NCBI GenBank assembly: GCA_027053075.1
Contig: JALUEE010000095.1
Span: 1-27,360 of the forward strand
DNA length: 27,360 bases
Source: a candidate division WOR-3 bacterium
Lineage (GTDB): Bacteria; Hydrothermota; Hydrothermia; B15-G9; WFZT01
Direction of reading: 5' to 3'
Shown: in pieces, positions 5,535-26,048 of the stretch
Numbering within the stretch: position 1 is the stretch's first letter
Layout: every line of letters begins with the position of its first letter
The notes under the pieces: generated by a model
The model's input: the letters and a program-made list of their open reading frames with translations, nothing else
Told to the model about the DNA's origin: nothing
Databases searched by the model: none
Translations under genes and position numbers: made by a program

Positions 5535-7841
5535 TCATCGTAATCTTACGAAAATCTTGTTTAAATTTCCTATTACCATTGGATGTTGATCGCGGTTGTA
5601 TAGTTTACCCGCTGTATATGAAACTTCACTTTCCAGATAGTTCTGTAGTTCACTCAAGGTTATTTTTCTGTCTTTATTACCGTCAGCCTCTCCTCTTATA
5701 CCCTTCAAAAAATAATATGTAAATAAAGAATGCCTTTTCTGAGGATACCAGGAAGCAATCTCTCCCGTTGTATCTGTTGCTGTTATTATCGTGAAATTTG
5801 ATGGCAACTTCTTTGACTTAAAAACAGGAACAACCCCGAGAGGTGACGCCCTCGCTATCAGCATCCCTCTCTGTGAACCGCCCGAAAAACACGCATCTAT
5901 TATTATGTTAATACTTCTTGCCGGCAGCTTGCTTAAATTTTTATAAAATAGGTCAAGGGGATAACCACTCAAGGCAATATAACTTGGATTGGCATCCACA
6001 GGTACAAAATATGCTGACCTTGTTGCAGGGTCAGGCGCCCCATGTCCTGCGTAATAAATATAAATATCGGGATTAGAGCCTTTCCTTATTAACCTGTAGA
6101 GTTTCCCCCTATAATCCTTACCTGTTCCAAACCACACTTCAAAATCAACCTTTTTCGCATTCTTCACAAAATAAATATTCCTTTCTGGTATTCCAAATGT
6201 TCTTTTAAAATATTCCTTAACTATTTCGCCATCATGAATGGCATAGTCAACTGGAGGAACATCTGAATGTTCGTAGTTTTTATTTGATATAACTATCCCT
6301 ATTGCATTTGATCTACTGTACCCAACAGGTATGTTTTCATCAACATCCACTATACCACCACTTTTCACCATAAACTCCGCTCCAAATTCACCCTCACCAT
6401 TGATTCCCTTTCTTGACTTTATCACATATTCCTTTCTCAATTCTCTACCGATTGGAAAGTCTAACTCCTTCTCCACATTCCACAACCCCGTTGCTTCCTC
6501 TATTCTAACATCTATAGCCATATTCTTTCTGCTATATCCAGAAGGCACAAAAAACACAAGCGTCCCTTCAACCTCACCTCCCGGTGGCAAATTCCCCAAC
6601 TTGTCTTCGCTTTTAATCATTCTTATTTTTCCATTCTTTGGAGTTCCTAATATCTCAACATCCCTTGCCTCTCCTTTCCCTACATTTTTTACTTTCAGAT
6701 GCAACTCTATTTGTTCTCTCGGTTGTATAATGCCGTCACCATTTCCCACAGACAAACCGACGTTATCATCATCTATAGATGCTATTACTCTGAAAGACGG
6801 AGGTAAAGGGGCATGGGTATAGAACTTCACTACCACTGGTTCTGGTGAATATTCTCCTGCATCTACCATTAATCTTATACTTTTCTCCCCTGTCTTAACT
6901 TTTAACGGAATCTTGAAACTTATACTTTTCTCAATTTCCTCTCCTTTCTTGATCTCTCCAATCTTGATATTCCTGTTTATGAATCCTGTAATCCTGAGTT
7001 TTACATTATATGCATTACCTTTTCCTGTATTAGCTATTTTGAGTTTCACATATGCATTTTCACCTGCAGAGAATATACCATCTTCATCACTATCTGTGAC
7101 TTTCACTTCCTTTATCTCGAGAAAAGGGGGAAGCTGGGTGTAAGGAGATTCACGTTGAGATTTTGTTTTCAAAACATATACATCATAATCAAGATACTTA
7201 TATGAGTATATGCAACCTGCAACTACTATATTCCCACCATCGAATGTCTGTAGTGAATAGATTTTCTCACCGTCGACCCCTCCAAGAACTTTCTCCCATA
7301 TTTTATCCCCTTCCTTGTCGAGTTTTAAGATATATACATCATATCCGCCTGCTCCATAAGATACTGCCCAACCTGCGACTACTATACTCCCATCGTCTAA
7401 TACCTGGAGAGCATTAGCCCTATCATCCTTAATTCCTCCAAAAGTCTTTTCCCATATCTTATTGCCATCCTTGTCAAGTTTTAAAACATATACGTCAAAA
7501 TCATATCCATTTGATCTATATGACATTGTCCAACCTGCGACTACAATACTCTCGTCAGCTAATACCTGAAGGGCATTCGCCCAATCATCCTTAATTCCTC
7601 CAAAAGTCTTTTCCCATATTTTGTTCCCGTCTCTATCAATTTTTACAACATACACATCCTGTCCACCTGCACCGTAAGACTCTGTCCAACCTGCAACCAC
7701 TATGCTCCCATCAGGTAATACCTTAAGGGCATTAGCCACATCATCTTTATTTCCACCATAAGTTTTCTGCCACACAAGTTCCTGGGCATTCAAAATACAC
7801 GCTGCCAATATTAACACTAAAATTGCCCTTACTTTACTCAT
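5535..7841 (-). CDS. Exported caspase-like (peptidase C14 family) protein: signal peptide, 4 beta-propeller repeats, 2 Ig-like domains, caspase domain
   Basis: Likely start MSKVRAILVLILAACILNA (ATG 7841, SD GAGGTG). Four ~49-aa W[QE]KT[YF]GG repeats. Dyad YYAGHG ... IIDACFSG. EF-hand-like DGNKDRKITLSEL. Confidence 0.85.
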   Translation of the reverse strand: MSKVRAILVLILAACILNAQELVWQKTYGGNKDDVANALKVLPDGSIVVAGWTESYGAGGQDVYVVKIDRDGNKIWEKTFGGIKDDWANALQVLADESIVVAGWTMSYRSNGYDFDVYVLKLDKDGNKIWEKTFGGIKDDRANALQVLDDGSIVVAGWAVSYGAGGYDVYILKLDKEGDKIWEKVLGGVDGEKIYSLQTFDGGNIVVAGCIYSYKYLDYDVYVLKTKSQRESPYTQLPPFLEIKEVKVTDSDEDGIFSAGENAYVKLKIANTGKGNAYNVKLRITGFINRNIKIGEIKKGEEIEKSISFKIPLKVKTGEKSIRLMVDAGEYSPEPVVVKFYTHAPLPPSFRVIASIDDDNVGLSVGNGDGIIQPREQIELHLKVKNVGKGEARDVEILGTPKNGKIRMIKSEDKLGNLPPGGEVEGTLVFFVPSGYSRKNMAIDVRIEEATGLWNVEKELDFPIGRELRKEYVIKSRKGINGEGEFGAEFMVKSGGIVDVDENIPVGYSRSNAIGIVISNKNYEHSDVPPVDYAIHDGEIVKEYFKRTFGIPERNIYFVKNAKKVDFEVWFGTGKDYRGKLYRLIRKGSNPDIYIYYAGHGAPDPATRSAYFVPVDANPSYIALSGYPLDLFYKNLSKLPARSINIIIDACFSGGSQRGMLIARASPLGVVPVFKSKKLPSNFTIITATDTTGEIASWYPQKRHSLFTYYFLKGIRGEADGNKDRKITLSELQNYLESEVSYTAGKLYNRDQHPMVIGNLNKIFVRLR

Positions 7842-8021
7842 GACTATCACCTCGATTTTATAAACACCTGATCCATATTTTCCATGCACCAAAAGCTTTT
7901 GGAAAACAATATGTTATTATAAATTTGTGACCATGTGGCTTAATACTGTCTGGACTTACATTTGCTGATATCAAGCATCTCTTGCAGGCAGAGCCGATAC
8001 CGAGTTTACTTTTTGATTTCC

Positions 8022-9473
8022 TCACAATTTCCAGCCTCCTACATCTAAAGAAACATTCCTCTTGATTTCTTCCAAGGCTTTCTTCTTAGCTATAGAAACG
8101 CTACCTGCACTTTTTACTACTTCATATGACCTCTGAAGCACTTCACCCTTTCCTCTCTTAGATATCGTCACTCTTACTTTTATGGAAACCTGATGAAATA
8201 GAGTCCCCCAGTAATCCTTGTCTTTTTCTGTTTCCCTCGAGCTGATAGTCAATTGGTATTCCCATCTTTCGGGATTGATCACCATCCATGAACCCAATTT
8301 CTTTTGTATCACTTCAAGCACTCTTTGACTCAATTCGCTTCCGTCTGTCTTGACCATAAAGAAAGCCTGCTCTTTCTTGTGGCTATATACCAGAACCAGT
8401 GATTTATTTTTGAGTGAATATAAACCATCGAGCAATGAGGGGAACGCCTTTAACTCCTCTTCCAGGTCGTTCCCAATATATGGTTTAACCATAAGCTTAA
8501 TTTTACCGGAATAACTTGGTGAAACTGTTAGGTTAGAATAGGCAATCCCCTCCTTATTTGTGGAAACAATATCTGGAGAAACCCTTCCAGAGCCTTCTAT
8601 TACCTTGAATCTAATCCTAAATCCTTGAACGGGAATGTTATTACCAAATACGACTTTTGCTCCAACCTTCGCGTTATTCTTTTTACCAAGGTCCCACTGG
8701 TTTGATTTCAGTGACTGTAAATCTATTCCATACAAGATACTATTGATTTTCCTATCAAAGTTAATACCAAATTTTTCGGCTCTCCATCCAACTCTTCTTG
8801 CGGTTTCATATCCTGTAAGTAAAATGTTTAACCCCGGCATTATTTTGCCCTTATTCACAAGTTCTAAGCCTGTTTTGTAGGCCTTCAGCATTGTTGCTAT
8901 AAGAGTATCAATTTTTGCCTGAAGAGTTTTCCTGTAGTTCTCAACTTCCTCTTCAGGATACAATGTTAGAACCCACACTTTGTAAAACCTTTTCCATCCC
9001 TCAGGGGTGTATCTTTTCCATGCCTCGACATAAACATTACTTGTGAATAATCTGTTAACCACAGCCTTTGATTCTGAACTCACAACTTTTGTCTCAATCA
9101 CCTCGGGATTGATGATCTCTGATGCCAGTTGATTTACTTTCGTGACTCCTCTGTATTCAACGCTTATTCTATTGTTTAAGTATTGTGCAATTTTGGAAGC
9201 TGCATCCCTGTATGCAATATTCTCCGCAACGGCTTCATCCGAATAGTTCTCCGCAACTCCACGAAAAGGAATAAATCCTTTGTATTCATTTTTTCGCTCC
9301 CGCAAAAATCTTCCCCAATCAGTAACCCATAATGGTTTCTGGCTTGGATAGCTTTCAACAAGTTTCTCCTCACCCAAGCTCACTCTTGCAGCCCTTTTCG
9401 CCTGCCTCGGCCCTACGCAGGATGATAGAAATAGGATTATACCTAAGAAAATTAATCTGTGGCCTGTTTTCAT
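8022..9473 (-). CDS. Lipoprotein with LPP20-like N-terminal domain and invasin/Big_1-like Ig domain
   Basis: Lipobox ILFLSS-C after MKTGHR. 'KPLWV...FRGVA...AENIAYRDAASKIAQYL' is shared with the 20192 and 20863 lipoproteins. 'GSGRVSPDIVSTNKEGIA' is Big_1-like. The start may be 9491. Confidence 0.65.
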   Translation of the reverse strand: MKTGHRLIFLGIILFLSSCVGPRQAKRAARVSLGEEKLVESYPSQKPLWVTDWGRFLRERKNEYKGFIPFRGVAENYSDEAVAENIAYRDAASKIAQYLNNRISVEYRGVTKVNQLASEIINPEVIETKVVSSESKAVVNRLFTSNVYVEAWKRYTPEGWKRFYKVWVLTLYPEEEVENYRKTLQAKIDTLIATMLKAYKTGLELVNKGKIMPGLNILLTGYETARRVGWRAEKFGINFDRKINSILYGIDLQSLKSNQWDLGKKNNAKVGAKVVFGNNIPVQGFRIRFKVIEGSGRVSPDIVSTNKEGIAYSNLTVSPSYSGKIKLMVKPYIGNDLEEELKAFPSLLDGLYSLKNKSLVLVYSHKKEQAFFMVKTDGSELSQRVLEVIQKKLGSWMVINPERWEYQLTISSRETEKDKDYWGTLFHQVSIKVRVTISKRGKGEVLQRSYEVVKSAGSVSIAKKKALEEIKRNVSLDVGGWKL

Positions 9474-9639: not shown

Positions 9640-10602
9640 CTAATACTTAATCCTGATAAAAACACAATCCTCTGCATAGCCACCTTTATCGCAGCTTTTT
9701 CTCACATCTCTTAATAGCTCTCTCACGCTGCCTTTGTATTTGTAATAACCACCAAGGTCCTCAAGCTTTTCCTTTGGAACATGCAGAGGCTTTTCACAAG
9801 CAAAAACTTTTATTATGTCCCAGCCCGGGGGTGCCATTGCCACTATTTTAAAAGTATCATTCTGGGAGGGTATTGTAACTTCCTCACCCGCCGGTATTTT
9901 CATCTGGCTCGAATAAGAGTTTGGATAAATCTGATATAACTCCCCAAGGTCTCTGTAAAGGTCATAAACCAGAATGTAACAGTCCCGATTCGCTTTTACT
10001 TTCAAATACACTGTATCTTCACCAGCTTTAAAATTAGCTCTCTCTGAGCTTAACGCTATCTTTAGTCCTCCTTTGTGAACATTTTCGATAAATAATTCTG
10101 CTGGAGTCTTTATTTTTGAAACACAGGCTGATAAATTTTTGGGGAACATCCTTTTAGGAACCTCAAAGTTTTTTGTAATAACCCTCTGAAGAGTATGCAC
10201 ATCCGTTACCCACAACTGGAGCAAGTAGTTATCACCCTCACTTTCCCATATTTTTCCTGAGAGATGCCAGTCAGGTGTTATCTTGCCTCCCCCAGATGAA
10301 ACTTGAACCTCTCCTCCAGTGCCACTTGTTGATAAAAATTCCTCTAATTTCTGCACCTCTTTAGTATCTGTTAGCCTTACAACTCTCAGATTATACTTAC
10401 CTGTGAGTTCTTCTTCTATTTTTCCAAGAATTAGCTCATTAAGGGGAGATACAGAATCATTTTGGCTACAATAGATCGCCCCTATGGTTAAGACTTTCCC
10501 CTGACCGGCCTTCTTTGATAAAGTATCAGCTAAGGACCCAATCGCCTGGTCAAAACTCAATCCACTTATGAGTAACCCGGAAAGTATCAAAATGCTAATC
10601 AT
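9640..10602 (-). CDS. Exported DUF4384-like protein with CsgG/FlgO-like N-terminal domain
   Basis: Hydrophobic N-terminus. C-terminal 'FKAGEDTVYLKVKANRDCYILVYD...QIYPN...IPAGEEVTIPS...APPGWDIIKVFA' matches the DUF4384 pattern. ATG overlaps the upstream stop (TAATG). Confidence 0.7.
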   Translation of the reverse strand: MISILILSGLLISGLSFDQAIGSLADTLSKKAGQGKVLTIGAIYCSQNDSVSPLNELILGKIEEELTGKYNLRVVRLTDTKEVQKLEEFLSTSGTGGEVQVSSGGGKITPDWHLSGKIWESEGDNYLLQLWVTDVHTLQRVITKNFEVPKRMFPKNLSACVSKIKTPAELFIENVHKGGLKIALSSERANFKAGEDTVYLKVKANRDCYILVYDLYRDLGELYQIYPNSYSSQMKIPAGEEVTIPSQNDTFKIVAMAPPGWDIIKVFACEKPLHVPKEKLEDLGGYYKYKGSVRELLRDVRKSCDKGGYAEDCVFIRIKY

Positions 10603-12499
10603 TACTCCACCACCTGGGACAATTTTAAATTCAATCCCTCTATCACCGGCTCCTGCCTAACACCTACTCGCCTCGCATATTCCTCCGTCTTCTTCTCCAA
10701 ATATCCCCTTATCTCATTTACCTCCAGATACCCATCACCATCCCTGTCCAATACATCTCCCGTTGTTAATGTCTTATACAAAGCATACGTGAATACCGAA
10801 TACCCCACATCCTCTAAATACGCACTTATCTCATCTGCCCTTGATGATAATAACACTGTGTAATTCTCCCCCCTCTTCGGCTCCTTCACCACCACCAATG
10901 GCTTCGCTCCCGCTAACATCACACCCTTCCCCTTCCCAGCATAACATACATCTCCTATCACCAACACCTTTACCCTCCTGCTACCCCTAAACCTCTTGTA
11001 TATCTCATCAACCCTCATCGCTGTCTCCGGTATGTATGTTATACTCTGATCCGCATCCACTGGCAACCAATACGCATTCCCTTCTTCATCCACCGCCCCA
11101 TGCCCTGAAAAGTATATTATCGCCATACCTCCCTTCCTCACCTGTTCCTTCAACCATTGCAACCCCTTCTTCATCTCCGCTAATGTTGGATTCTCCATAT
11201 ACCTTAAATTACCAGGCTTCACACCCATTATCTTTACTGCCATCTCCCTCATTAACCTCGCATCATTCACCGGTGTCGGCAACTTACTCACATTCATGTA
11301 ATTACTCACTCCTATTATCAACGCATACCTTCTCGGGTCCTGAAATAATGGTACCTCTGGTAACCCCGCCCTCTCCTTCTCCACCTTAATTACACTCCTG
11401 AACTCCCCTCCCTCTTGAATCTCTCCTGTCGGCTTTATCACATAACTCCTCTCCGTTAACTCACCTACAGGAAATCTCATCTCTTTCTTCACTGTCCATA
11501 GCCCAGTGCTCTCTTTTATCTTTAGTCCTATCTTAACATCTTTCCCTTTATACCCATATGGTACAAAGAATGCTAATCTACCTTCTAACTCCCCACCGGG
11601 CACTATGTTCCCCAATACATCCTCACTCTTCACCATTCTTATACCCTCGCTCTCCGCCTCTCCTTCTATTTTGACCCCTTTTGCCATCCCTTTACCCTCA
11701 TTTCTCACTTTGACATGCAACTCTATAGTCTCCCTTGGCTCTATCTTACCATTACCATTCCCCAATGAAAGACCTTCCCTATCGTCATCTACTCTTACCA
11801 CCACGTTGAATGATGGTGGTATAAGTGCATGGGTATAGAACTTCACTACCACTGGTTCTGGCGAATATTCCCCTGCATCTACCATTAATCTTATTCTCTT
11901 CTCCCCTGTCTTAACTTTTAAGGGCACTCTAAACTCAAACTCCCTCTCGATTTCCTCACCTCTCTTTATGATTGATACCCTATCCACTTCACTCCTGAAA
12001 AATCCATCAACCCATATTCCAACCCCATATGCATCTCCCTTGCCACTGTTTTTAATCACCACCCTCACTCTCGCCTTCTCACCTGCCTCAAATACACCGT
12101 TCCCATTCTCATCCTTTATATCAAATGCCTTCACCTCCAAATATGGGGGCCTCTCTGCTAACCCACCTCTCGGCTCTGTCTTTATGCTGACTTCGTCCAT
12201 TGCCTCCACACTCTCTCCCCACTCGGCTTTCCCCTTATACATCAGTCTGAAAGTCATTTCTCCCTTTGGTAATCCTCCTATGGCTTCTATTGGTATCCTC
12301 ACTTTTGCCTCTCCATTTGCTGGAACCTTAGGAACTTTTATTTTCATTGGATATTTTACTAATCCACTGTAATCAGATGATATCAATTCAACCAGCAATC
12401 TCCCACCCACAGCTTTCGAATTTGCACTATTACTCAATGTTACCTCTATTTCTCCTTTATCTCCCGCCCTTAACACACCATCCCCGTCTGTATCGGTAA
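10545..12499. repeat. 1,955-bp direct repeat, copy 1
   Basis: Aligns without visible gaps to 13264-15218 (offset 2,719). The central ~1 kb appears identical by eye. Confidence 0.95.
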
Positions 12500-13142
12500 T
12501 TTGGGAGAAGATAGAAATTTGTGGAGGGAATATTCTAACTACGTCTTTAGGAACCCATGCATAATACAAAGGAGCATTCAACTTCAATCCAAAATAAAAA
12601 TTACTTCGTTGTAAGCCAGTATCTTTTTCTTTCATAGAAAAAAATCCACCTTCTATTCCAAGTGCCATTACTTTAGTCAACTGCCATTCTACACTGCCAT
12701 TTAAAATAACCCATGAAAGTTCATGATCTGTAGTGCTGTCAAAACCACCTATGGCGAATATACTTGTAGATGCAGACAATTGAAAAATCGAGGGATAGTA
12801 ATAAACCCCACTTTTTTCTCTTATGTTGCTTAATGGTATCATAACTTTCAAATAGAGTGGGATAAGTCCCTCTACTTTGCCACCATTTTTCTTGTCTATA
12901 CACTGATCTAAATTTGCTAGTCCTATCCCTACACCAATTCCTAAATCATGTTTTTTAGCTCCTATACCCCGAGCAATACCAACATCCATACGCAAAAGAG
13001 GATAACCTATCGTTCCTTCATATATGTAATTTTTCCACCCTCCTTTCCCAATATAACCATATCCTGAGAGAAATAGTGGGATTAACAAAATCATTGTGAC
13101 TATCAAGGATTTGTTCCTTGCAATAATAAATCCCATCTTCAT
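10602..13142 (-). CDS. Exported caspase-like protein, copy A: signal, beta-barrel-like variable domain, 3 Ig-like domains, caspase domain
   Basis: Likely ATG at 13142 (SD AAGGAGA). 'RYALIIGVSNY...PVNDA', dyad YFSGHG ... GDVCYAG, EF-hand loop DRDGDGYLEVNEI. Confidence 0.85.
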   Translation of the reverse strand: MKMGFIIARNKSLIVTMILLIPLFLSGYGYIGKGGWKNYIYEGTIGYPLLRMDVGIARGIGAKKHDLGIGVGIGLANLDQCIDKKNGGKVEGLIPLYLKVMIPLSNIREKSGVYYYPSIFQLSASTSIFAIGGFDSTTDHELSWVILNGSVEWQLTKVMALGIEGGFFSMKEKDTGLQRSNFYFGLKLNAPLYYAWVPKDVVRIFPPQISIFSQITDTDGDGVLRAGDKGEIEVTLSNSANSKAVGGRLLVELISSDYSGLVKYPMKIKVPKVPANGEAKVRIPIEAIGGLPKGEMTFRLMYKGKAEWGESVEAMDEVSIKTEPRGGLAERPPYLEVKAFDIKDENGNGVFEAGEKARVRVVIKNSGKGDAYGVGIWVDGFFRSEVDRVSIIKRGEEIEREFEFRVPLKVKTGEKRIRLMVDAGEYSPEPVVVKFYTHALIPPSFNVVVRVDDDREGLSLGNGNGKIEPRETIELHVKVRNEGKGMAKGVKIEGEAESEGIRMVKSEDVLGNIVPGGELEGRLAFFVPYGYKGKDVKIGLKIKESTGLWTVKKEMRFPVGELTERSYVIKPTGEIQEGGEFRSVIKVEKERAGLPEVPLFQDPRRYALIIGVSNYMNVSKLPTPVNDARLMREMAVKIMGVKPGNLRYMENPTLAEMKKGLQWLKEQVRKGGMAIIYFSGHGAVDEEGNAYWLPVDADQSITYIPETAMRVDEIYKRFRGSRRVKVLVIGDVCYAGKGKGVMLAGAKPLVVVKEPKRGENYTVLLSSRADEISAYLEDVGYSVFTYALYKTLTTGDVLDRDGDGYLEVNEIRGYLEKKTEEYARRVGVRQEPVIEGLNLKLSQVVE

Positions 13143-13263
13143 AATATGTCTCCTTAACGATGTTAAAAATTTCATCTTGATCTAATTGATATCTTAATTA
13201 AACCTTTGTGCATTATTGGATTTTGGTCTCGCTTGTAAAATCGATCTCTTGTGGATCCAAGCT

Positions 13264-13321
13264 CCTGGTCAAAACTCAAACCACTTATGAGTAACCCGGA
13301 AAGCATCAAAATGCTAATCAT
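13264..13321 (-). pseudogene. Truncated 5' remnant of the DUF4384-like gene
   Basis: Translates MISILMLSGLLISGLSFDQ versus MISILILSGLLISGLSFDQ at 10602, then homology stops. Confidence 0.85.
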
Positions 13322-17286: not shown

Positions 17287-18617
17287 TACATCGGGTTTTT
17301 TAAAAGAGATGTATTTTTATCAATCCACCCTTTCAAAGTAGGTATTACTTTTACATAATATTTATCCTCCTTCTCTAAAAGCAATTTCAACTTAGTTCCT
17401 GCGGGTAATTTTGTTAATACTCTCCCGGTGGAGGAAAATAGAGGAGCATTATTTTGTTTTATAAAGATGAATTCCCTATTAAATCTTAACCTAAACTTCA
17501 ATAGATATACATCTTTTCCTCCCAATCCATAGGATTTAGTCCATCCTGCGACTACCATAGTTCCATCATCTGTTATTCGTAAAGAATAGGCCTCTTCATC
17601 TTTTTTACCCCCATAGGTTCTTTCCCATATGATGTTCCCGTCTTTGTCCAATTCTGCCAAAAATACGTTTTTCGACTCTCCATACGCATATTTCCATTGA
17701 TTTCCAGCGATTATTATTGTAGTGTCTTCGAGTACTTGTAAAGACCTTGAACTGGAGGAAACATATTTATATACTCCTCCAATATAATAGTTGGTCCAAA
17801 TTGAGTCCAACTGATTATCGAATCTCACAACAAATGCTCCATTAGGTTCGTATGTTCCTGCAATTATTCCGCCCCCATCTTCGAAAACATATAAGTCATA
17901 CCCATACCAAGACCCTAGAGCGTTCCGTTCAAGTCTGTTTTCCTTTAACAGGTTACCATCTCCATCAAATTTCCACAGAGTTATGTATAGGGCTTCACCT
18001 GCCAATAGTATGCCACCGTCGTGTAGAACTTTTAGAGCATATGCACCTTGTTCTTTTGCTTTTTTCTTAAAAATTTTCTGCCATACTTCATTTCCATTAG
18101 CATCAATTTTTAATAAATATATACCTGTAGTAAAAAAAGAAAATTTCACCCACCCCGCCACTACTATACTGTTGTTTTCTGCCACCCCAATTGCCTCGGC
18201 TACTTCATTTTTGCCCCCTTTAAACGTCCTTTCCCATATTTTGTTTCCATCTCTGTCTACTTTTAAAATGTAAACATCTTTCTTTACAGCACCAAATGAC
18301 TTTGTCCATCCGGCCAGTATAATACTACCATCATCTAATACTTGCATATCGTTAGCTACATCATCATTACTCCCTCCATACGTTTTTTGCCATAATAGTT
18401 TACCATCTTTGTCCACCTTCACCAAATATACATCTTTGCCACCATTCCCAAATGATTTTGTCCATCCTGCAATAATGATGCTACCATCCTCCAACACTTG
18501 AACAGCTCTTGCCTCTTCATCCTCACTACCACCATAAGTTTTCTGCCACACAAGTTCTTGGGCATTCAAAAATCCAATAACCAATGCCATTATTGTAAAA
18601 ATCATTTTAATCCTCAT
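17286..18617 (-). CDS. Exported 7-repeat beta-propeller protein with C-terminal SH3-like domain
   Basis: Signal MRIKMIFTIMALVIGFLNA (SD AAGGAGG). The mature start QELVWQKTYGG is identical to that of the 5535 gene. C-terminal 'LTKLPAGTKLKLL...YYVKV...GWIDK' is SH3b-like. Confidence 0.8.
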   Translation of the reverse strand: MRIKMIFTIMALVIGFLNAQELVWQKTYGGSEDEEARAVQVLEDGSIIIAGWTKSFGNGGKDVYLVKVDKDGKLLWQKTYGGSNDDVANDMQVLDDGSIILAGWTKSFGAVKKDVYILKVDRDGNKIWERTFKGGKNEVAEAIGVAENNSIVVAGWVKFSFFTTGIYLLKIDANGNEVWQKIFKKKAKEQGAYALKVLHDGGILLAGEALYITLWKFDGDGNLLKENRLERNALGSWYGYDLYVFEDGGGIIAGTYEPNGAFVVRFDNQLDSIWTNYYIGGVYKYVSSSSRSLQVLEDTTIIIAGNQWKYAYGESKNVFLAELDKDGNIIWERTYGGKKDEEAYSLRITDDGTMVVAGWTKSYGLGGKDVYLLKFRLRFNREFIFIKQNNAPLFSSTGRVLTKLPAGTKLKLLLEKEDKYYVKVIPTLKGWIDKNTSLLKNPM

Positions 18618-18858
18618 CATCAACCTCCTTTTAAATATTTGGGTAAACTGCACAACGTCTTAAACTTACCTCTAAAACATTTCCCAACCCATGAGAGCAT
18701 TTGGGGAAATTTCAAGTTATTAGATTTTCCTTCTCCTTCTTTTCCCCACGCAAATTGTGCGTATGGGGAAATGGAGGATTTAGCAACATTTTTGGACACA
18801 CTCATCCACTCTGTGGTCATATTTGTATAAGCGAGAATAAATAAAAAGCCTTCTTTTT

Positions 18859-19917
18859 TCATCTGAAATATTTTCTGTAATAAGCTCTGCGTCTTATTAC
18901 CTTCCTGACATATTCTCTCGTTTCCTTTGGAGGGTAGGTTCTCAAAATTCTATAAACCATGTCAGGGTTTTGGGTGTCAATGTGTTCTCTGCGGATTAAT
19001 TTGAGGACATTGCCCGGTCCCCAGTTATAAGAAGCAATTAAAAGATACTGCTCTGATAGATTATTGTCGAAATTACCGAAAAAGGTCTTTCTCATGTAAT
19101 CAATGTATGCTGTCCCAAGCCTAATATTTATTTCAGGGTCAAAAAGCATACCACACGGGACCACTCTATCCTCCCCCTTCAGGTATCGATATGCCTCTCT
19201 CGCCCCATGCCTGGGCATCAACTGCATTAACCCACAGGCTCCTGCTTTTGACACTGCAAGTGGGTTAAAATACGATTCGGTATGTATGATGGCTGCTATT
19301 AATGCTGGCTCAAGCTTAAATTCTTCAGAATATCTTTCGATTAAATTTTTGAACGGCTTTATTCTCCTTCTTAAATGATCCGGTAACATCGCTATTTTTA
19401 TCGCATATCTGTATCTTTTCACTCCATCGGGAGACAGTATGACTCTTTTCTCGATTTTGTGCTCCTTTAATAATTCTGGAGCATTCTTTTCATTTACATA
19501 CTTTCCTTTCTTTGTTTTTACCTGCTCCTGCAATAGATTCATGTGAGATGGATTGTCCTTTGAGAAAACCTTCTTTAGTCTTTCAGTCAAATGTTTTCTT
19601 GCTATCCTATCTGCATCAAGGGAGTCAACTGGCACTACGGTTTCAATTTTAAGAAACCCATCCTTGAAATTTACAATACTACGGGATTCAGCATCCTTTG
19701 AATAGCTTACCCACTCTTTTCTTGTTGATTTAACAAACTCCCCCCAAATAGAATCAACCTTTGCCTCAAACGCTGTCCACTGCTTGTTTGTACCGGTGTT
19801 GAACTCTGACCAGGATTTATCTACATTTTTTTCAAATTCGCTCCACTGTTTATCAATATCTTGGGAATAGATTTGTCCCACTGTTAACATTATCAACACA
19901 ATTACAAAATTTTTCAT
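18859..19917 (-). CDS. MltC-like lytic murein transglycosylase (DUF3393-like + SLT domain)
   Basis: SLT motifs 'IIHTESYFNPLAVS', 'GLMQL', 'LFDPEINIRLGTAY', 'ASYNWGPG', 'ETREYVRKV'. N-terminal 'WVSYSKD..SRSIVNFKDG.LKIET' resembles MltC. Signal peptide present. Confidence 0.88.
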   Translation of the reverse strand: MKNFVIVLIMLTVGQIYSQDIDKQWSEFEKNVDKSWSEFNTGTNKQWTAFEAKVDSIWGEFVKSTRKEWVSYSKDAESRSIVNFKDGFLKIETVVPVDSLDADRIARKHLTERLKKVFSKDNPSHMNLLQEQVKTKKGKYVNEKNAPELLKEHKIEKRVILSPDGVKRYRYAIKIAMLPDHLRRRIKPFKNLIERYSEEFKLEPALIAAIIHTESYFNPLAVSKAGACGLMQLMPRHGAREAYRYLKGEDRVVPCGMLFDPEINIRLGTAYIDYMRKTFFGNFDNNLSEQYLLIASYNWGPGNVLKLIRREHIDTQNPDMVYRILRTYPPKETREYVRKVIRRRAYYRKYFR

Positions 19918-20079: not shown

Positions 20080-20132
20080 TTTTGGTGCATTATTTGCCAC
20101 GCACTTCGTGCGTGGCAAATAATGCACCAAAA
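20080..20132. repeat. Perfect 25-bp inverted repeat with 3-nt loop
   Basis: TTTTGGTGCATTATTTGCCACGCAC-TTC-GTGCGTGGCAAATAATGCACCAAAA. Confidence 0.95.
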
Positions 20133-20191
20133 ATCTCCCTTTAAATAATCCTACAACTCGTGATCCTCCCAAAATACTCATCCAGCATCTC

Positions 20192-20863
20192 CTAAAATCC
20201 CTGACTCTTAAGTTTCTCTAATTCCCTGTCCGCTTCCTCGAGGAGTTTCGTTTTCTGCTCATTCTGGGCTTTTGCCATTTCCTCTCTTATTTTTCTCTGC
20301 TGTTCCTCTATCATTCTTTTGTGAATGCGTTCAATCTCCGTCTTTGGATAAAGGACGAGCACATATGCTTTATAGCTTGTCTTACTCCAGGCTCCATTTC
20401 TAAATTCCTGGCATTGCTGAACAAATCTTTCACGTGTATAAGCTTTGGAGATTTTGTTAGCGTTGATCTGTTTAATGGCAATTTCCTCTTTAGTGGCTGG
20501 ATCGAGCACCTCTGAAGCTAAACCTTTTATCAAGAGGACTTGATCAACCTTGGAGCCACTGGTTGTCTGGACATAGGCTGATATTTTATCTACTACATCC
20601 TTATAAGCATCCTTCTCTGCAAGAGCCTCCGAGGTCATTGGCTGAGAGATCCCTACAAATGCGAGATACTGATCAGTACTATACTTTCCCCTATGAGTAA
20701 CCCAATCTGGCTTTTCTGGAGGATAAGGCTTCCAACCATCCCTGTGAAGACATCTTATGTCACCTTCCTGCGGAGCTTTTAATGCCTTGCCACCTGTTGC
20801 ACAGGCAGTCACAAAAAGTGAAAAAAATAAAATGGGAGCCCCAATTCGTAACAACTTTCTCAT
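20192..20863 (-). CDS. LPP20-like lipoprotein
   Basis: Lipobox LFVTA-C; 'KPDWV...FVGIS...AEKDAYKD..DKISAY'; C-terminal coiled coil. Paralog of 20863-21525, coupled through TGATG. Confidence 0.7.
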   Translation of the reverse strand: MRKLLRIGAPILFFSLFVTACATGGKALKAPQEGDIRCLHRDGWKPYPPEKPDWVTHRGKYSTDQYLAFVGISQPMTSEALAEKDAYKDVVDKISAYVQTTSGSKVDQVLLIKGLASEVLDPATKEEIAIKQINANKISKAYTRERFVQQCQEFRNGAWSKTSYKAYVLVLYPKTEIERIHKRMIEEQQRKIREEMAKAQNEQKTKLLEEADRELEKLKSQGF

Positions 20864-21525
20864 CAGAACCCTTCCTTCTTTAATTTTTCAAAATCTTTCT
20901 CGGCCTCTCTAAGTAGCTGCTTTCTCTGCTCATTTTTGGTCTTTGCTATCTCCTGACGTATCCTTTCCTGTGCCTGTCTTATCATGTCCTCTCTTATCTG
21001 TTTTATCACACTTCTTGGTAGCTTAACCATTGCATAAGAGACGTAATAATCATCTCCCCACGCGCCGTTGCCGAACTTCTGAGCATGTAGTGTGTAGTAC
21101 TCATTAACATACATGGACTTCAGCGTGGCGACAGAAATCTCTTTCCTTATCACCTCTCCCACAATTGCAGGATTAACTATTTCATTACTCAGGTTTTTCT
21201 TTTTCGCCACATCGAGCATTTTTAAGCCTACTGAAGACTGGAAATATCTAACTATCTGGTCAAGAGCAGATCTGAGAGCGTCGTCTCTTGCATCACTCTC
21301 GGTAGCATACTTTCTCGACACTCCCACAAACACCAAGTTTTCCTTGTCAGAGTATTTACCGGGTTTATTTACCCAATCCGGCAGAACTGGTTTATTCAGT
21401 GTCCAGCCTTTGCCAGGAACTTCATATCTAATGTCACCTTCTTTTACCTGCGTCACTCTTGGGGCATTACAGGACATCCCTATCATTGCTATTCCAAGCA
21501 CCGTTGCATACAATACTTCCTTCAT
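20863..21525 (-). CDS. LPP20-like lipoprotein
   Basis: Lipobox IGMS-C; 'LPDWV...FVGVS...ARDDALRSALDQIVRY'; SD AAGGAGGT. Confidence 0.7.
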   Translation of the reverse strand: MKEVLYATVLGIAMIGMSCNAPRVTQVKEGDIRYEVPGKGWTLNKPVLPDWVNKPGKYSDKENLVFVGVSRKYATESDARDDALRSALDQIVRYFQSSVGLKMLDVAKKKNLSNEIVNPAIVGEVIRKEISVATLKSMYVNEYYTLHAQKFGNGAWGDDYYVSYAMVKLPRSVIKQIREDMIRQAQERIRQEIAKTKNEQRKQLLREAEKDFEKLKKEGF

Positions 21526-21741: not shown

Positions 21742-24700
21742 TCATTGAGCTCTGAACCTCCATTTTACGAAAACCTGATCAAGATTTCCTATCACCTGCG
21801 GATGCTGTTCCCTATCACGCAATGCCACAGCTTTAATAGGAACTTGTCTCAAGAGATATTTTTTCAATTCATAAAGTGTCAATCTGTTATCTTTATTAAA
21901 ATCAGCCTCCCCTTTTAATGCTTTAAGGAAAAAGTATGTGAATAACGAATGTCCAACTTCAGGGTACCATAAGGCTGTTTCTCCCGCTTGTGTTGCAGTT
22001 ATTACTGTGAAATTCTTAGGGATTGAGCTTCTAACAGGTTTAACACTTAACGGGGATTCTAACTTAAAAAGACTTCCTCTGTCTGAAATTCCTGAAAAAC
22101 ATGCATCTATTATTATAGTGATTGACTTTGCCCTGACTCGACTCAAATTTCTATAAAACAAATCAAGTGAATATCCATTGAGGTCCACAAAATTAGGATG
22201 GCAGTCAACGGGGACAAAATAGGCAGATTTAGTTTGTATATCAGGGGCTCCATGCCCTACATAATAAATAAAGACATCGTAAGCTTCATTGTTCATCAAT
22301 CTATAAAGCCTTCCCTTGGCATTAGATTCAGTTCCAAACCACAGTTCAAAATCTGTTTTCTTTGCATCTTTTAATACAAAAATTTGCTCAGATGGGATTC
22401 CTAATACTTTATGAAAGTAGTTCTTCATCACCTCCGCATCATGGAATGCATAAACAACTTCAGGAATATCACTATATGTATAATGTTTGTTTGCAATAAT
22501 AATACCAATAGATTTAGGGTTTGCGTATCCCTCGGGGATATTTACATCTACATCGTTGTTGCCTTTTATCTCTGTTTTAAATCTATGGGAAACGTCTGTA
22601 TTTTTACTATATAATTCTTCCTTGGGTGTAATTACGTATTGCTTTTCCGAAACTGTTCCAACAGGAATGTTTATAACTTTTGAAAAAGACCATAGGCCTG
22701 TATTTTCCATCACTTTCAAGTTCATAGAGATTTCAGTTTTGTCATATCCAGATGGGACAAAAAATGCCAAAGTTCCTTCAATTTCCCCTCCAGGCGGGAG
22801 ATTTCCAAGTTTAACTTTTCTTTTTATCATCTTTATATCCTTACTTTGCGGAATTACCTCTATTTCAACATCCTTAGCTATCCCTCTGCCTGAATTTTTT
22901 AGTGTTATATGCATTTCAATTTGCTCTCTCGGCTGGATAGAGCCATCCCCATTTCCAATAGATTGACCGATGTTGTCATCATCAAATCTATAAGAAATCT
23001 CAAATGCAGGAGGTATTGGTGCTTGAGTATAAAACTCCACAGTTATTGGCTCGGGAGAATACTCGCCAGCATCAACATAGAGTTTTAAGAATTGCTTCTT
23101 TGTTTCAACTCGTATAGGGACTTTAAATTTAATTTCTTTTTTAACATAAGATTTCTTATCTATTTGACCAATGTTTATGTCTTTATTAATAAACCCTCTT
23201 AGTTTCAATCTGACTCCATAGGCTGGCCCTTTGCCACTATTGTAAAGTATAATCTTTGCAACAGCAGGTTCATCTGATTCGAAGACACCATTATTGTTAG
23301 CATCATATACGGCAAATTTATCAACATTAATAAACGGCGGGTAAAAATGGGAACTTTTTATTTTGAAATTCATATTCCTTGTGTGCCTTATATCATGGCC
23401 ACAGAGAGTATAGAGACCAGATTTACTACCACTACAGTTCGCTTCTATTGCATATAAATATCCACTATTGTCTCCTACATAAACAATTCCATCGGGGGAT
23501 ATAAGCGGTTCGCTTTGAACTCTGGACCTTGTTTTATAGACTTTCAATATTTTTCCATGAGAGGAAATCTCATATAATCCATCCTCATAGCCTATAAAAA
23601 TATTTCCATTATTGCAAATGCTGACATTGGAATAAATCTCATAGTCAAATTCCATGTACCAGCCTTCACCTGTTTTGATACTCAGTGAATATAGGTGATC
23701 TCCTAATATTGCATATATTCTGTGAGAATCAATCATTATCTCTTGTAAAAGTAGGTTTTCGTCCAAACTATTTATCTTGAGAAGTTCCCCATTGGATGTC
23801 AATTTATATAAATTAGTTCCAGAATATGAACGTCCGAATAAACCGTGATAATTGTATCTTGCAGTAGCGAGTATCATCCCCCCTTTTATCCATGGAGAAA
23901 TTGCAATAACTGGCTCATCACCAATTTTTCTTTTGCTAATTCTAAATTTTCGTCCACTTTTTCTGATTTTATAAATATAACTTACATCCTCCTTTTTATT
24001 ATAGCACCCAATTATAATGTTGTTATACACATCAACCAGTGGTTGAGTTAAAACTGTCATATCTTTTATAGACATCACTACTTTTCCATTGGGAGAAACT
24101 ATAAAGAAGTTGTAATTCAATGGGCTAACACAAATATACCCAGTAGATGTTATTGCGATTCCCACTCCCGCGTTATGAGTTGAATCCAAGAAAATCTCCC
24201 AATTTTTATGCCCATTTATATCTATTGATGTTAAATAGCCATTTTTAGTCTGAAGATATATATTCCCGTGCTCATCGATTGAAGGAGAACTTCTCACTGA
24301 GCCCTTCAACTTGTATTTCCATTTCATTGTTCCATCTGGATAAATAGAATAAACATACCCATTGTTAGTGCCTACAACAATTGAACCATCAAGGTTAATA
24401 GCCGGAGAGTAATATATGGGACTACCAGCGTTAAATTCCCACTTTAAATAAGCAGGTAACTTTCGAGTTTTGGATTTATATTTAGAAAAAATTTTATTGT
24501 AATTTAAGATGAACAGCGCCAAAAAAATGGAGAAGACGATTATACCAATCAAAGCTGTCAAACTAATATCATCTGATGAACTACTGGAATATGAGGTAGT
24601 ATTTGCATTTGTGGTATAGGTATCGTTGCTTGGGACAGAATTTAAATTCCAATTTTTTGTTAAATCAGGGGGAGTTGATCTAATCTGTGTAGGGGAAAAT

Positions 24701-24921
24701 TCGTAATCACCGAGGGTGGAATATTTGTCTTTATTGTCGTCTATATCAATCTTATGAAATTCATTTTCATTAGAAGAGAGATCTGATAAATTGATTCCTT
24801 TCACCTCTTTGGGAGGCCATAGTAAACCAATATTATTGCTTCCACAATAAGGACATTTACAAGGAGGAAAGTAACAGTTAAAAGTTTTTCCACAATTAAA
24901 ACAATGATAAATTTCACTCAT
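21742..24921 (-). CDS. Membrane-anchored caspase-like protein: Zn-ribbon, TM helix, PQQ-like beta-propeller, 2 Ig-like domains, caspase domain
   Basis: CFNC...CKCPYC; Ser/Thr linker; TM LTALIGIIVFSIFLALFIL; 'SPAINLDGSIVVGTNNGYVYSIYPDGTMKW' PQQ/BamB-like repeats; dyad YYVGHG ... IIDACFSG. Confidence 0.85.
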   Translation of the reverse strand: MSEIYHCFNCGKTFNCYFPPCKCPYCGSNNIGLLWPPKEVKGINLSDLSSNENEFHKIDIDDNKDKYSTLGDYEFSPTQIRSTPPDLTKNWNLNSVPSNDTYTTNANTTSYSSSSSDDISLTALIGIIVFSIFLALFILNYNKIFSKYKSKTRKLPAYLKWEFNAGSPIYYSPAINLDGSIVVGTNNGYVYSIYPDGTMKWKYKLKGSVRSSPSIDEHGNIYLQTKNGYLTSIDINGHKNWEIFLDSTHNAGVGIAITSTGYICVSPLNYNFFIVSPNGKVVMSIKDMTVLTQPLVDVYNNIIIGCYNKKEDVSYIYKIRKSGRKFRISKRKIGDEPVIAISPWIKGGMILATARYNYHGLFGRSYSGTNLYKLTSNGELLKINSLDENLLLQEIMIDSHRIYAILGDHLYSLSIKTGEGWYMEFDYEIYSNVSICNNGNIFIGYEDGLYEISSHGKILKVYKTRSRVQSEPLISPDGIVYVGDNSGYLYAIEANCSGSKSGLYTLCGHDIRHTRNMNFKIKSSHFYPPFINVDKFAVYDANNNGVFESDEPAVAKIILYNSGKGPAYGVRLKLRGFINKDINIGQIDKKSYVKKEIKFKVPIRVETKKQFLKLYVDAGEYSPEPITVEFYTQAPIPPAFEISYRFDDDNIGQSIGNGDGSIQPREQIEMHITLKNSGRGIAKDVEIEVIPQSKDIKMIKRKVKLGNLPPGGEIEGTLAFFVPSGYDKTEISMNLKVMENTGLWSFSKVINIPVGTVSEKQYVITPKEELYSKNTDVSHRFKTEIKGNNDVDVNIPEGYANPKSIGIIIANKHYTYSDIPEVVYAFHDAEVMKNYFHKVLGIPSEQIFVLKDAKKTDFELWFGTESNAKGRLYRLMNNEAYDVFIYYVGHGAPDIQTKSAYFVPVDCHPNFVDLNGYSLDLFYRNLSRVRAKSITIIIDACFSGISDRGSLFKLESPLSVKPVRSSIPKNFTVITATQAGETALWYPEVGHSLFTYFFLKALKGEADFNKDNRLTLYELKKYLLRQVPIKAVALRDREQHPQVIGNLDQVFVKWRFRAQ

Positions 24922-25409
24922 TAAAAATCACCCCCAACGTCAGAAATGAAATGCAACGATCTTTCTATATGTTGTTTCAGTGATAGGAAAAGTAGTGCCA
25001 AAGTTATTGAATTTCCTGCGCTTTTTCGCTGATTATATAAAGACCGTAATTGGATGAAGCCTAAACCTGGAGAGGTTCCGGAAATAGTTAATAGCTTATA
25101 AAACAAAATGGCATAGCTAAGTAAATATGAGTAGAACCCTCCTATAACAAACTTTTTTTTAAAAAATTGTACAATAAAAATTTTTATTGTTTTACAGAAC
25201 GCTTTCGTCTTTATAGAATGCTCGGCATTATTCCAAACTTTTATACCAATGGAAAGGTTGTTTTTTTTGGAATGTTGTAAAACTTTGGGTATATATACAG
25301 TAGAAATAGGTTTTCCATGATCATCAATTGTGATTTTAGTAAGTGTGTATTTTGTAATATCTCCCTCCGCCGAAGAGATCGCCAAATTCATAAATTGACA
25401 AGAGCTCAT
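24921..25409 (-). CDS. Doubtful hypothetical ORF or degenerate gene
   Basis: Has an SD-like GGGGAG and a stop overlapping the next ATG. Very AT-rich with homopolymer runs and no recognisable motif. Confidence 0.25.
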   Translation of the reverse strand: MSSCQFMNLAISSAEGDITKYTLTKITIDDHGKPISTVYIPKVLQHSKKNNLSIGIKVWNNAEHSIKTKAFCKTIKIFIVQFFKKKFVIGGFYSYLLSYAILFYKLLTISGTSPGLGFIQLRSLYNQRKSAGNSITLALLFLSLKQHIERSLHFISDVGGDF

Positions 25410-25460
25410 AACATACTCCCCTTTTGAAAAATTTTAATATATGGTTTGGGGATATTCAAC

Positions 25461-26048
25461 CTAACGATTTTTCCCCAGGGGAATCTCGATCCCAGTCTGG
25501 AGCATTCCAATAACGTTAGATTTATAAAGAATCAGCTGGAAACTGTTGTAAATATAATTGGATTTCCATTTTGAGCGATTGCCAACGTAAAATCTAAGAA
25601 TTACATTGGAATTTTCACAGCTATTGCATATTCCGGTCATAGCCTGAACCCCAACGAGAGAGCGGGGCCATATTCTGTAGTAAATCCCTCCGCTTAAGAG
25701 GTAAAAATAGTTCTCCGAAGAAATGAAAGAGTTAAGTCCAAGCGATAATATGCCTTCACTAAGTCCAAATCTATACTTTCCTCCAAGTGTAACAATTCCA
25801 CCATCACTACCAAGCAGTAAAAGTGGGGCCTGGATTAAAAAGTCCTGATTGGATCCGAGGCCGCGTCTATAATAAATCTCGGGAATCGGCAACAAGAGAA
25901 AACCGCTGCGTATATATGCAAAGGGTATCCCTACACCCAGTCTGGACTCACCCTTATCGAGAATTTTGGGGTCTTCATAAAGCCCAATCCCCATGCATCC
26001 CTCAAGAAGGAAGGTTACAATGATGAGAGGAATCCATTTTTTAACCAT
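25461..26048 (-). CDS. Hypothetical lipoprotein, amphipathic beta-strand rich (possible outer-membrane barrel)
   Basis: True start is probably ATG 26048 (SD AAGGAGG): MVKKWIPLIIVTFLLEG-C lipobox. Alternating Gly/aromatic strands, ending MLQTGIEIPL. Confidence 0.65.
   Translation of the reverse strand: MVKKWIPLIIVTFLLEGCMGIGLYEDPKILDKGESRLGVGIPFAYIRSGFLLLPIPEIYYRRGLGSNQDFLIQAPLLLLGSDGGIVTLGGKYRFGLSEGILSLGLNSFISSENYFYLLSGGIYYRIWPRSLVGVQAMTGICNSCENSNVILRFYVGNRSKWKSNYIYNSFQLILYKSNVIGMLQTGIEIPLGKNR

Follow-up and report, generated by a model that had tools for sequence, protein, structure and literature searches.

An expanded cluster of predicted envelope caspases in a candidate division WOR-3 bacterium, and the recurring caspase–DUF4384 module to which it belongs

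We describe a cluster of genes for predicted envelope proteins (positions 5535–26048), five of them containing caspase domains, from a candidate division WOR-3 bacterium. The window, that is the whole stretch of 27,360 nucleotides that was analysed, is the entire contig C95 (JALUEE010000095.1) of a 2.44-Mb genome (G000) that is 95.4% complete. The cluster contains 13 minus-strand open reading frames (ORFs), which follow one another in the direction of transcription as g13, g12, g11, g10, g9, g8, g7, g6, g5, g4, g3, g2 and g1, and then rplT-pheS-pheT. A preliminary description, made from the sequence alone, counted about 12 co-oriented genes; the co-orientation stands, while the count becomes 11, since g7 and g6 are one gene and g12 is probably none. 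These 11 genes encode five caspase domains with a His/Cys dyad, three lipoproteins of the Lpp20/FlgP fold, a DUF4384 protein, an MltC-like enzyme and one further lipoprotein (table 1). The five caspases are all the caspase matches of the genome, and the cluster is found in one of five congeners (G004). Export signals, lipoboxes and the transmembrane (TM) helix were called by a hydropathy heuristic and by inspection. By this heuristic there are lipoboxes in g2, g9, g10 and g13 and a TM helix in g11; four intact caspases have an export signal or a TM helix, and one (g6) is split from its signal.

Table 1. Features of the cluster in the direction of transcription, with positions in the window. 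Ig, immunoglobulin-like domain; dN/dS, non-synonymous substitution rate divided by the synonymous rate; REP, repetitive extragenic palindromic; AF2, AlphaFold2; pLDDT, predicted local distance difference test.
Feature	Position	Strand	Description	Basis
g13	25461..26048	-	lipoprotein, LEGC lipobox, Gly/aromatic-rich, no family; dN/dS 0.28 versus G004	
g12	24921..25409	-	162-codon ORF, open in G000 and G004; no family match	
g11	21742..24921	-	Zn-ribbon, low-complexity linker, TM helix 116–146, PQQ-type beta-propeller, two CARDB-like Ig, caspase	
g10	20863..21525	-	Lpp20/FlgP-fold (SHS2-like) lipoprotein	AF2 pLDDT 90.2, fold searches
g9	20192..20863	-	lipoprotein, g10 paralogue (38% identical), stop/start overlap with g10	
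perfect inverted repeat	20080..20132	.	25-bp arms, 3-nt loop; copy of a genome-wide REP-like palindrome, not system-specific	
g8	18859..19917	-	MltC-like lytic transglycosylase: Mltc_N and SLT, catalytic E214 motif; signal peptide, no lipobox	
g7	17286..18620	-	5' part of split gene: signal peptide, delta-60/DUF5122 beta-propeller, SH3b	
g6	15934..17286	-	3' part of split gene: Ig, SH3b, caspase; Glu replaces the S1 Asp before Cys	
g5	13321..15855	-	signal peptide, variable head of ~180 aa, three Ig, caspase (second subtype)	
g3 stub	13253..13321	-	copy of the first g3 codons; marks g5/g4 tandem duplication	repeat D4
g4	10602..13142	-	g5 duplicated in tandem, with another head; stop/start overlap with g3	
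g3	9640..10602	-	signal peptide, alpha/beta domain (weak LpoB-like match), DUF4384	
g2	8022..9473	-	lipoprotein: LPP20-type domain, helical stalk, Ig (Big_1-like), C-terminal domain	
g1	5535..7841	-	signal peptide, delta-60 beta-propeller, two CARDB-like Ig, caspase	

To which family do the five protease domains belong? Each retains the GHG and [D/E]-x-C motifs of the dyad (longest-ORF numbering: H617/C668 in g1, H692/C744 in g4, H685/C737 in g5, H283/C334 in g6 and H890/C941 in g11). The Pfam C14 model is matched above its cut-off by three of the five; NCBIfam and PADLOC caspase models match all five, below the cut-off where one exists (NF047832, the model for EACC1-type caspases, scores 52–87 bits against a cut-off of 140). 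For the caspase domain of g1 an AF2 model (pLDDT 92.5) was obtained, and its matches include metacaspase 4 with Z 21.8 (root-mean-square deviation 2.6, 214 residues aligned), MALT1 (Z 20.8), caspase-9 and GSU0716 (Z 19.7). Legumain and GPI transamidase were matched at Z 14.7–17.4, gingipains at Z 9 and C11 at Z 7. The other four domains were placed in the fold by alignment. A PDB sequence search with the caspase domain gave nothing significant, and no C25 domain match was found among the window proteins. We conclude that the window proteases are members of peptidase family C14 by fold, dyad and S1 motif. The five caspase folds with an intact dyad claimed at the outset are thus borne out by the dyads of all five and by the model of g1.

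The five domains fall into two subtypes, g1/g6/g11 and g4/g5 (g4 and g6 are 28% identical), and g6 has an Ig and an SH3 domain in place of the CARDB Ig pair. The earlier picture of different heads on a constant Ig-plus-caspase effector is therefore right about the heads but not about the effector. In the clade of g1/g6/g11 the His-Gly/Cys dyad is present in 82 of 84 ORFs. Both S1 Asp positions, assigned by motif and not by superposition, are kept in 81 of 82 clade caspases and in four of the five of the window, g6 having Glu at the second; the role of this acidic pair in the S1 pocket is taken from PMC6426788 (papers are cited here and below from their accessible text). A Ca-loop motif occurs in 68 of the 82 and a Lys or Arg in the post-Cys loop in 74; this loop is flexible in the g1 model (pLDDT ~62). 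Because the Asp pair is so consistently kept, the caspases are predicted to be specific for Arg/Lys, and they may be Ca-dependent and self-activating in the post-Cys loop. A signal-like N-terminus was detected in 62 of 75 complete clade caspases versus 392 of 1049 background ORFs (hydropathy test), and we infer that these caspases are exported to the periplasm. The genome has Omp85 matches and 45 matches to the tail of the type IX secretion system (T9SS); none of the 45 lies on contig C95, and none of the five caspases has such a tail. The CARDB-like Ig pair, with its DxDxDG-type Ca motifs, is common to large T9SS-tailed proteins of this genome (C23:31517-35968, C33:2104-5928) and occurs also in MXAN_5808-type periplasmic Prc peptidases (TIGR03900 matches), a recurring spacer of envelope proteases.

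If these caspases are exported, which genes accompany them in other bacteria? We examined the best 79 distinct loci of at least 612 confirmed g1/g6/g11-clade matches in GTDB genomes. Their lineages, read from record titles, span about a dozen phyla (Bacteroidota, Ignavibacteria, Nitrospirota, deltaproteobacterial groups, Cloacimonadota, Elusimicrobia and others; further lineages are Calditrichota, Marinimicrobia, Zixibacteria, Lentisphaeria and Gammaproteobacteria). The commonest neighbour, at 34 loci, is a secreted protein of ~280 aa. Thirty-one of these 34 match Pfam DUF4384; our own DUF profile was built from these neighbours, and Pfam identified them independently. In a six-frame recount that included the Bacteroidota homologue, a DUF4384-type partner was present at 44 of the 79 loci, on the same strand as the caspase in all 44, within 2 kb in 36 and within 500 bp in 22. 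Collapsed at 70% identity, 29 of 52 groups have the partner. The chance expectation is 0.75%, calculated from 89 Pfam DUF4384 matches in 174 Mb of 50 carrier genomes; these were hand-picked from the 79, are enriched for partner-bearing loci and were used for copy density only, so that the presence of DUF4384 in 47 of the 50 was not counted towards co-occurrence.

The N-terminal domain of the partner resembles FlgP and FlgT_N: 10 of 38 members match FlgT_N, and the profile matches 9hmf_C (E 9e-6) and, weakly, FlgP/FlgT chains. The usual partner is therefore an LPP20-fold domain and a DUF4384 domain in one chain. (Local hhalign of this N-domain against the g10 family gave 26% probability; comparisons of such small alignments were mostly uninformative.) In the window the two domains lie on separate genes, the LPP20 fold on g9, g10 and g2 and DUF4384 on g3. 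Fusions join the same parts in other combinations: of 150 relatives of g10, 21 carry DUF4384, all of them among the 47 whose length exceeds 300 aa, LPP20 is fused to a caspase in P0096, and both caspase–DUF4384 and MltC–DUF4384 fusions occur at locus L175. The simplest loci (L070, L075) consist of caspase (332–364 aa) and partner (274 aa) only.

The same association was seen within the phylum, where 16 of 201 genomes have the caspase clade. DUF4384 is present in 10 of these 16 versus 35 of the 185 others, and the g10 family in nine of the 16 versus 15 of the 185, genomes of close kin not being independent in either comparison. The genes are physically linked in G115, G134, G132, G102 and G037, and lie on separate contigs in G122 and G154. 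G115 (caspase, two LPP20-type genes, an unknown gene, LPP20/DUF4384, caspase) is, like G134, an independent multi-gene copy. These results support a conserved core of caspase and LPP20/FlgP-fold–DUF4384 partner. Co-occurrence of the partner genes in other genomes, which had been set beforehand as one of the points on which the proposal could fail, was thus found, in the DUF4384-type partner and in the fusions. The 12-gene composition is not conserved as a unit; MltC is an optional addition to the core.

Two further arrangements were observed among these loci. Five in Bacteroidota (L069, L078, L092, L108 and L127) have a conserved four-gene version consisting of caspase, c7 (~240 aa), the partner homologue c8 and c9 (~500 aa); c7 and c9 are secreted and have no Pfam match, and c9 is also found near an MltC-like gene in L224. 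Small genes resembling toxin–antitoxin genes (nucleotidyltransferase/HEPN, RelE, HigBA, PIN), together with DUF559 and REP-transposase genes, are often wedged between the genes of the module (L072, L076, L084, L085, L101, L122, L142, L156; labels by sequence inspection).

The lipoprotein, DUF4384 and MltC-like assignments of the preliminary description were confirmed by a fold match of g10, by Pfam and by the Mltc_N and SLT domains. The top match of the g10 model in both fold searches is Lpp20 (5ok8), at a modest Z of 9.4 and a Foldseek E of 0.006, with 108 of 114 target residues covered. There are 152 relatives of g10 at E<=1e-3, and Pfam LPP20 is matched by four of the 87 members of the family alignment at E<=0.01. 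The Lpp20/FlgP fold was assigned to g9, g10, the N-domain of g2 and the N-domain of the partner. In g3, Pfam identifies DUF4384 at E 9e-16, and the profile of the partner family also matches (E 1e-11). Searched through a word index, g3 recovered only itself, and a PDB sequence search with the g3 family gave nothing significant. A complex prediction for the g1 caspase domain and the g3 DUF4384 domain scored 0.28 and 0.31 against a mark of 0.32; it had no controls and was not used.

What is the place of the MltC-like enzyme? The catalytic Glu motif of g8 is invariant in 45 homologues. With no lipobox Cys and 165 bits against the NCBIfam MltC cut-off of 375, g8 is not MltC proper. MltC is present in six of the 50 carrier genomes and, among the 201 phylum genomes, only in G000 and G004. 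From the side of the enzyme we examined 80 metagenome loci of g8 relatives (the best of 571), collapsed at 70% identity; 25 groups with at least 7 kb were counted, and 16 groups of shorter loci were excluded. Eight of the 25 have a co-oriented caspase (seven by profile, L189 by Pfam), in differing gene orders, and 16 have an LPP20, FlgT_N or DUF4384 neighbour (14 by profile, 16 with Pfam). MltC is optional, yet not accidental. The counts from the two sides therefore indicate that a core of caspase and partner and an extension of MltC and ring lipoprotein have met repeatedly. At L171, L179, L187 and L211, as often at MltC-like loci, genes for a TPR-SLH protein, for FlgT_N proteins or for a GNA1162-type lipoprotein are found, apparently part of a larger non-flagellar envelope assembly.

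The history of the cluster can be read in part by comparison with G004. The caspase, DUF4384, LPP20 and MltC regions have dN/dS of 0.06–0.17, that is, they are under purifying selection. In G004 and in protein P0156 the g7 and g6 frames are continuous, and the DNA alignment with G004 places a gap of one base at ~17,314. A near-identical 151-nt contig of another study (X5) has the extra base, weak evidence alone at a depth of 2.6; a sequencing run labelled hydrothermal vent metagenome, which contains every sampled word of the window and is possibly its source, agrees with the window at this position. No RNA run was listed as containing the window. We conclude that g7 and g6 are one gene broken by a 1-bp deletion at ~17,314, not two coupled genes. 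A programmed frameshift or phase switch at the A-run 17,296–17,301 was ruled out, since the alignment and X5 place the lesion at 17,314; no stable hairpin lies downstream of the run (-6.1 kcal/mol). The caspase part (g6) has no signal peptide and no clear ribosome-binding site, and its caspase region has a dN/dS of 0.06. For g12 the dN/dS is 1.07, and with no family match it is probably not a gene; being unselected, its overlap with g11 is meaningless. Lying upstream of g11, the region 24921–25409 could be a gene in decay or carry regulatory sequence. Of the several translationally coupled pairs first proposed, the stop/start overlaps (TAATG/TGATG) of g10/g9 and g4/g3 are real, and those of g7/g6 and g12/g11 fall away. 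The membership of g13 in the system is uncertain, and no homologue of it was found among the 79 caspase loci.

How does a caspase acquire its head? The genes g5 and g4 are a tandem duplication that included the g3 stub, as is evident from the stub copy lying between them. The heads of g4 and g5 are 35% identical, and each is 35–49% identical to that of the G004 copy. Beyond the heads, the three copies are 90–96% identical in the first Ig and 95–99% in the other Ig and the caspase (for g4 versus g5, 90% and 98–99%). The contrast implies that the heads have been exchanged by recombination. The g4/g5 head is possibly a small outer-membrane beta-barrel, to judge from an Atlas match to TraO (0.91, rank 17) and a composition of 15–16% Gly and 13–15% aromatic residues; a PDB sequence search with these heads found no match. 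G004 has one gene of the g4/g5 type and two of the g7 type, in an order differing from that of the window, and both of its g7-type propeller genes (L021:6877-9563, L022:2-1340) are also frame-broken. The frame breaks and copy numbers in G004 suggest birth and death of paralogues, although they may instead reflect assembly error. In g11, by comparison with G004, the Zn ribbon is 100% and the caspase 99% identical; g11 is predicted to be anchored in the inner membrane, with the ribbon cytoplasmic and the caspase periplasmic.

In related loci variation has another source. Genes of the FGE/CLec type occur in 26 of the 79 caspase loci, and of the 31 members of this cluster that are complete, 28 begin with a signal-like sequence. 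Nine of the 79 have a reverse transcriptase (RT) or template repeat of a diversity-generating retroelement (DGR), with RT, Avd/HRDC and template repeat, and with targets of the Ig-plus-FGE/CLec type (L066, L072, L084, L085, L099, L106, L114, L122 and L135). In the template/variable repeat pairs of these nine loci, 86–100% of the mismatches fall at template adenines; the pairs were counted from the table, the automatic count of three having missed templates that themselves score as FGE. Two DGR targets were counted in L122, and in L113 two caspases are accompanied by nine FGE genes. The genome studied here varies its heads by duplication and exchange instead.

The flank 1–5364 holds, by inspection, housekeeping genes (a rarA-like ATPase, zapA-like, pheT, pheS and rplT), and the flank 26431–27360 holds a gene of the ODP family with a metallo-beta-lactamase (MBL) fold (Pfam) and a deoC-like gene. 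The divergent MBL-fold gene (26431–27123) was considered as an effector and ruled out, having close homologues in four congeners that lack the caspases. The GC content of the cluster is 39.4%, against 43.9 +/- 1.1% in 123 segments of the genome, each of 20 kb, just one of them being equally low. No single empty insertion site could be defined, as congeners differ in the genes that adjoin rplT and the MBL gene, and scans of the locus for promoters and terminators gave chance-level results only. Phage records gave no caspase-domain match, and 72,556 plasmid records gave one 40%-identical match spanning the caspase domain, all others being at or below 33%. The REP-like palindrome (table 1) has a 17-bp core with a GAA loop and 29 genomic copies, of which 24 lie outside ORFs of at least 150 aa; at many copies locally different flanks extend the stem perfectly, as if the arms had been copied from the insertion site.

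How does this module compare with known systems? Metacaspases with an N-terminal TM segment or a signal peptide, the latter in 46 sequences, were on record in 2012, as were operons containing as many as three caspases (PMC3501461), and caspase–DUF4384 fusions are known in cyanobacteria (PMC7475262, PMC6426788). With the prokaryotic metacaspases and orthocaspases (MaOC1, GSU0716) the window proteases share the fold, the His/Cys dyad and the acidic S1 pair. The LPP20/FlgP–DUF4384 partner, the link to MltC, the swapping of heads, the link to DGR lectins and the five paralogues seen here set the locus apart from metacaspases as described in the accessible parts of those papers (PMC3501461, PMC6426788, PMC7475262). 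Immune modules with a protease effector (gasdermin, EACC1, MBL, Pepco, Csx29/Csx30, PCaspase; PMC12642450) have in common with it a sensor head, a caspase-like protease and a linked partner. Some Csx30 substrates of the caspase-like Csx29 have a C-terminal DUF4384 (bioRxiv 2022.08.17.504292), and CLec DGR targets lie near caspase-like effectors, a few of them predicted to be periplasmic (PMC10907252). Here, however, there is no known effector, STAND, MoxR or CRISPR gene, export is predicted for the protease itself, and its partner belongs to a ring-fold lipoprotein module; the main text of PMC12642450 does not use the terms 'signal peptide', 'periplasm' or 'secreted'. The locus lies outside the characterised caspase-effector modules (gasdermin, EACC1, MBL, Csx30, CBASS/Avs-linked).

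It lies outside flagellar accessory systems as well. The ring proteins Lpp20, FlgP and FlgT (PMC12222027) have the same fold, whereas the genes here adjoin proteases and not a motor, and the rings are putative. No flagellin, FlgI, reverse transcriptase (RVT_1) or FGE match was found in the 95.4% complete genome. Among extracytoplasmic proteases of clan CD, gingipains and PorU (C25), clostripain-like enzymes (C11) and legumain and GPI transamidase (C13) share the clan fold outside the cytoplasm, Ig domains and Ca motifs. Gingipains resemble the window caspases in the predicted preference for Arg/Lys, but here there is no T9SS tail, the catalytic domain is C-terminal and the head N-terminal; structurally, too, the caspases are nearer to C14 (Z 20–22) than to gingipain or C11. 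MltC has the Mltc_N and SLT domains of g8, whose subfamily travels with LPP20, FlgT_N, CsgG and DUF4384 genes. In a literature search that covered the text of mainly openly accessible papers, no description of the caspase and LPP20/DUF4384 module, with or without MltC, was found, nor any characterised system of this composition, as the preliminary description had supposed; DUF4384 is mentioned in seven papers, in none of which the text covered describes the module. Its suggestion of novelty appears to hold for the module; exported caspases and multi-caspase operons had been noted before (PMC3501461). We conclude that this envelope caspase module is real, recurs and is apparently undescribed, and that the cluster studied here is an unusually expanded form of it. 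As a gene system it has good support; what it does we infer.

What might such a module do? We tentatively favour envelope surveillance, at somewhat short of an even chance: the locus would be an expanded copy of a widespread module in which exported caspases with exchangeable heads are docked on a scaffold of Lpp20/FlgP-fold and DUF4384 proteins. Binding of a ligand by the head would cluster the protease and switch it on, and envelope partners would then be cut. As the caspases lack a T9SS tail, g11 has a TM anchor, and lipoboxes or a possible barrel head occur elsewhere, they are presumably retained in the periplasm, anchored in the inner membrane (g11) or the outer membrane (g4/g5 head; lipobox in homologues), or unanchored (g1). 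The lipoproteins may polymerize into rings or sheets under the outer membrane in the manner of FlgP. Since FlgP shares their fold and builds concentric rings, a lipoprotein lattice on which DUF4384 is docking element or substrate is the simplest reading. The link between caspases and scaffold may be DUF4384, as adaptor or as substrate, since fusions join it to LPP20, to caspase and to MltC. Clustering and Ca2+ could take part in activation, together with a cut that follows a basic residue of the flexible post-Cys loop. The optional MltC-like enzyme might open the peptidoglycan locally for assembly, or be released as a downstream effector.

Several observations weigh against surveillance by such a module. 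At 35 of the 79 caspase loci no partner was detectable in the fetched flanks, and DUF4384 occurs in 35 of the 185 phylum genomes that lack the caspase clade; the link is therefore not obligate. LPP20 genes of the g9/g10 type are found at only one or two of the 79 loci, and MltC at one. For the CsgG/FlgO/LpoB-like (TolB-N-like alpha/beta) fold considered for the N-domain of g3 there is only an LpoB match at E 0.035, pairwise and PDB searches giving none, and only one of ten heads of the g4/g5 type matches OMP_b-brl, at E 0.095, weak support for a barrel. PADLOC found caspase matches and one weak cyclase match only, with no known defence effector adjacent, and the locus adjoins rplT-pheST, not a defence island. 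With neither RT nor FGE in this genome, hypermutation is a property of relatives only. Variable binding heads would be as much in keeping with adhesion or feeding as with immunity. What survives of the extracytoplasmic caspase system first proposed is a module of predicted exported caspases with variable heads, not a fixed composition.

Could the locus instead be a machine for assembly or sorting, in which MltC makes an opening in the wall, a trans-envelope ring is formed by LPP20/FlgP-fold and CsgG/FlgO-like proteins, and the caspases process or anchor surface proteins as maturases or sortase-like transpeptidases, like PorU or GPI transamidase? PorU acts as a sortase, and legumain and GPI transamidase were returned by the fold search with g1. 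MltC-like loci repeatedly include FlgT_N, LPP20, CsgG/FlgO, GNA1162, TPR-SLH and TPR-OmpA genes, often with no caspase, and FlgP forms concentric basal-disk rings (PMC12222027). However, sortases are as a rule single conserved enzymes that serve many tagged cargoes, whereas here the protease is multiplied, carries the variable head and turns over; a C-terminal sorting tag common to several proteins was not seen, caspase and partner are all that the simplest loci contain, and this locus has no CsgG match. We think such a machine unlikely. Of similarly low probability is the idea that these are surface proteases for feeding or attack on gingipain lines, with adhesin-like heads, lipoproteins that anchor them or aid export, and an MltC that digests the cell's own or a foreign wall. 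The Arg/Lys S1 pocket, the Ca-binding motifs, the propeller, SH3b and lectin heads and the many other secreted proteins of the genome are all in keeping with it, and DGRs also diversify adhesins. Yet the five caspases lack the T9SS tail that their host uses widely, the conserved cytoplasmic Zn ribbon and inner-membrane helix of g11 fit signalling better, and a dedicated target is suggested by the close linkage, on the same strand, to a single partner family.

That two modules (MltC with LPP20 lipoproteins, and caspase with DUF4384) merely lie side by side, the caspases having multiplied locally in tandem without a function in common, seems to us distinctly improbable. The rarity of MltC at caspase loci and in the phylum (two of 201 genomes) would suit it, as would the plain tandem duplication of g4/g5 and the broken g7/g6; the co-oriented caspases in eight of 25 independent MltC groups with differing gene orders, the fusions of LPP20 to DUF4384, of LPP20 to caspase and of MltC to DUF4384, and the purifying selection on all four kinds of region argue against it. 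We favour a recognition-triggered role in conflict over these rivals because of the variable heads, the patchy spread, the turnover of paralogues and the linkage to DGRs. In a bolder form of surveillance, which is doubtful though not far-fetched, this would be a periplasmic, inflammasome-like immunity of diderms. Variable receptors (swapped heads in the present genome, secreted lectins hypermutated by retroelements in its relatives) would recruit exported caspases through DUF4384 to an Lpp20/FlgP-fold lattice, and the activated cascade would license the lytic transglycosylase or another envelope effector against phage, predator or epibiont. If this is true, there is a caspase immune pathway outside the cytoplasm and a non-flagellar role for ring proteins of the FlgP type.

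Exported bacterial caspases have been counted since 2012 without an assigned partner or pathway in the accessible text of that survey (PMC3501461), and for DUF4384 and non-flagellar LPP20 proteins our literature search found no assigned function. The present analysis ties caspase, DUF4384 and LPP20 into one recurring module in about a dozen phyla and names a candidate partner or substrate. The minimal two-gene versions, and cultured genera with the caspase clade (Flammeovirga, Rapidithrix, Flexithrix), make the question testable. If the module does serve surveillance, protease-based immunity of bacteria would extend to the envelope, and a class of DGRs would gain a pathway.

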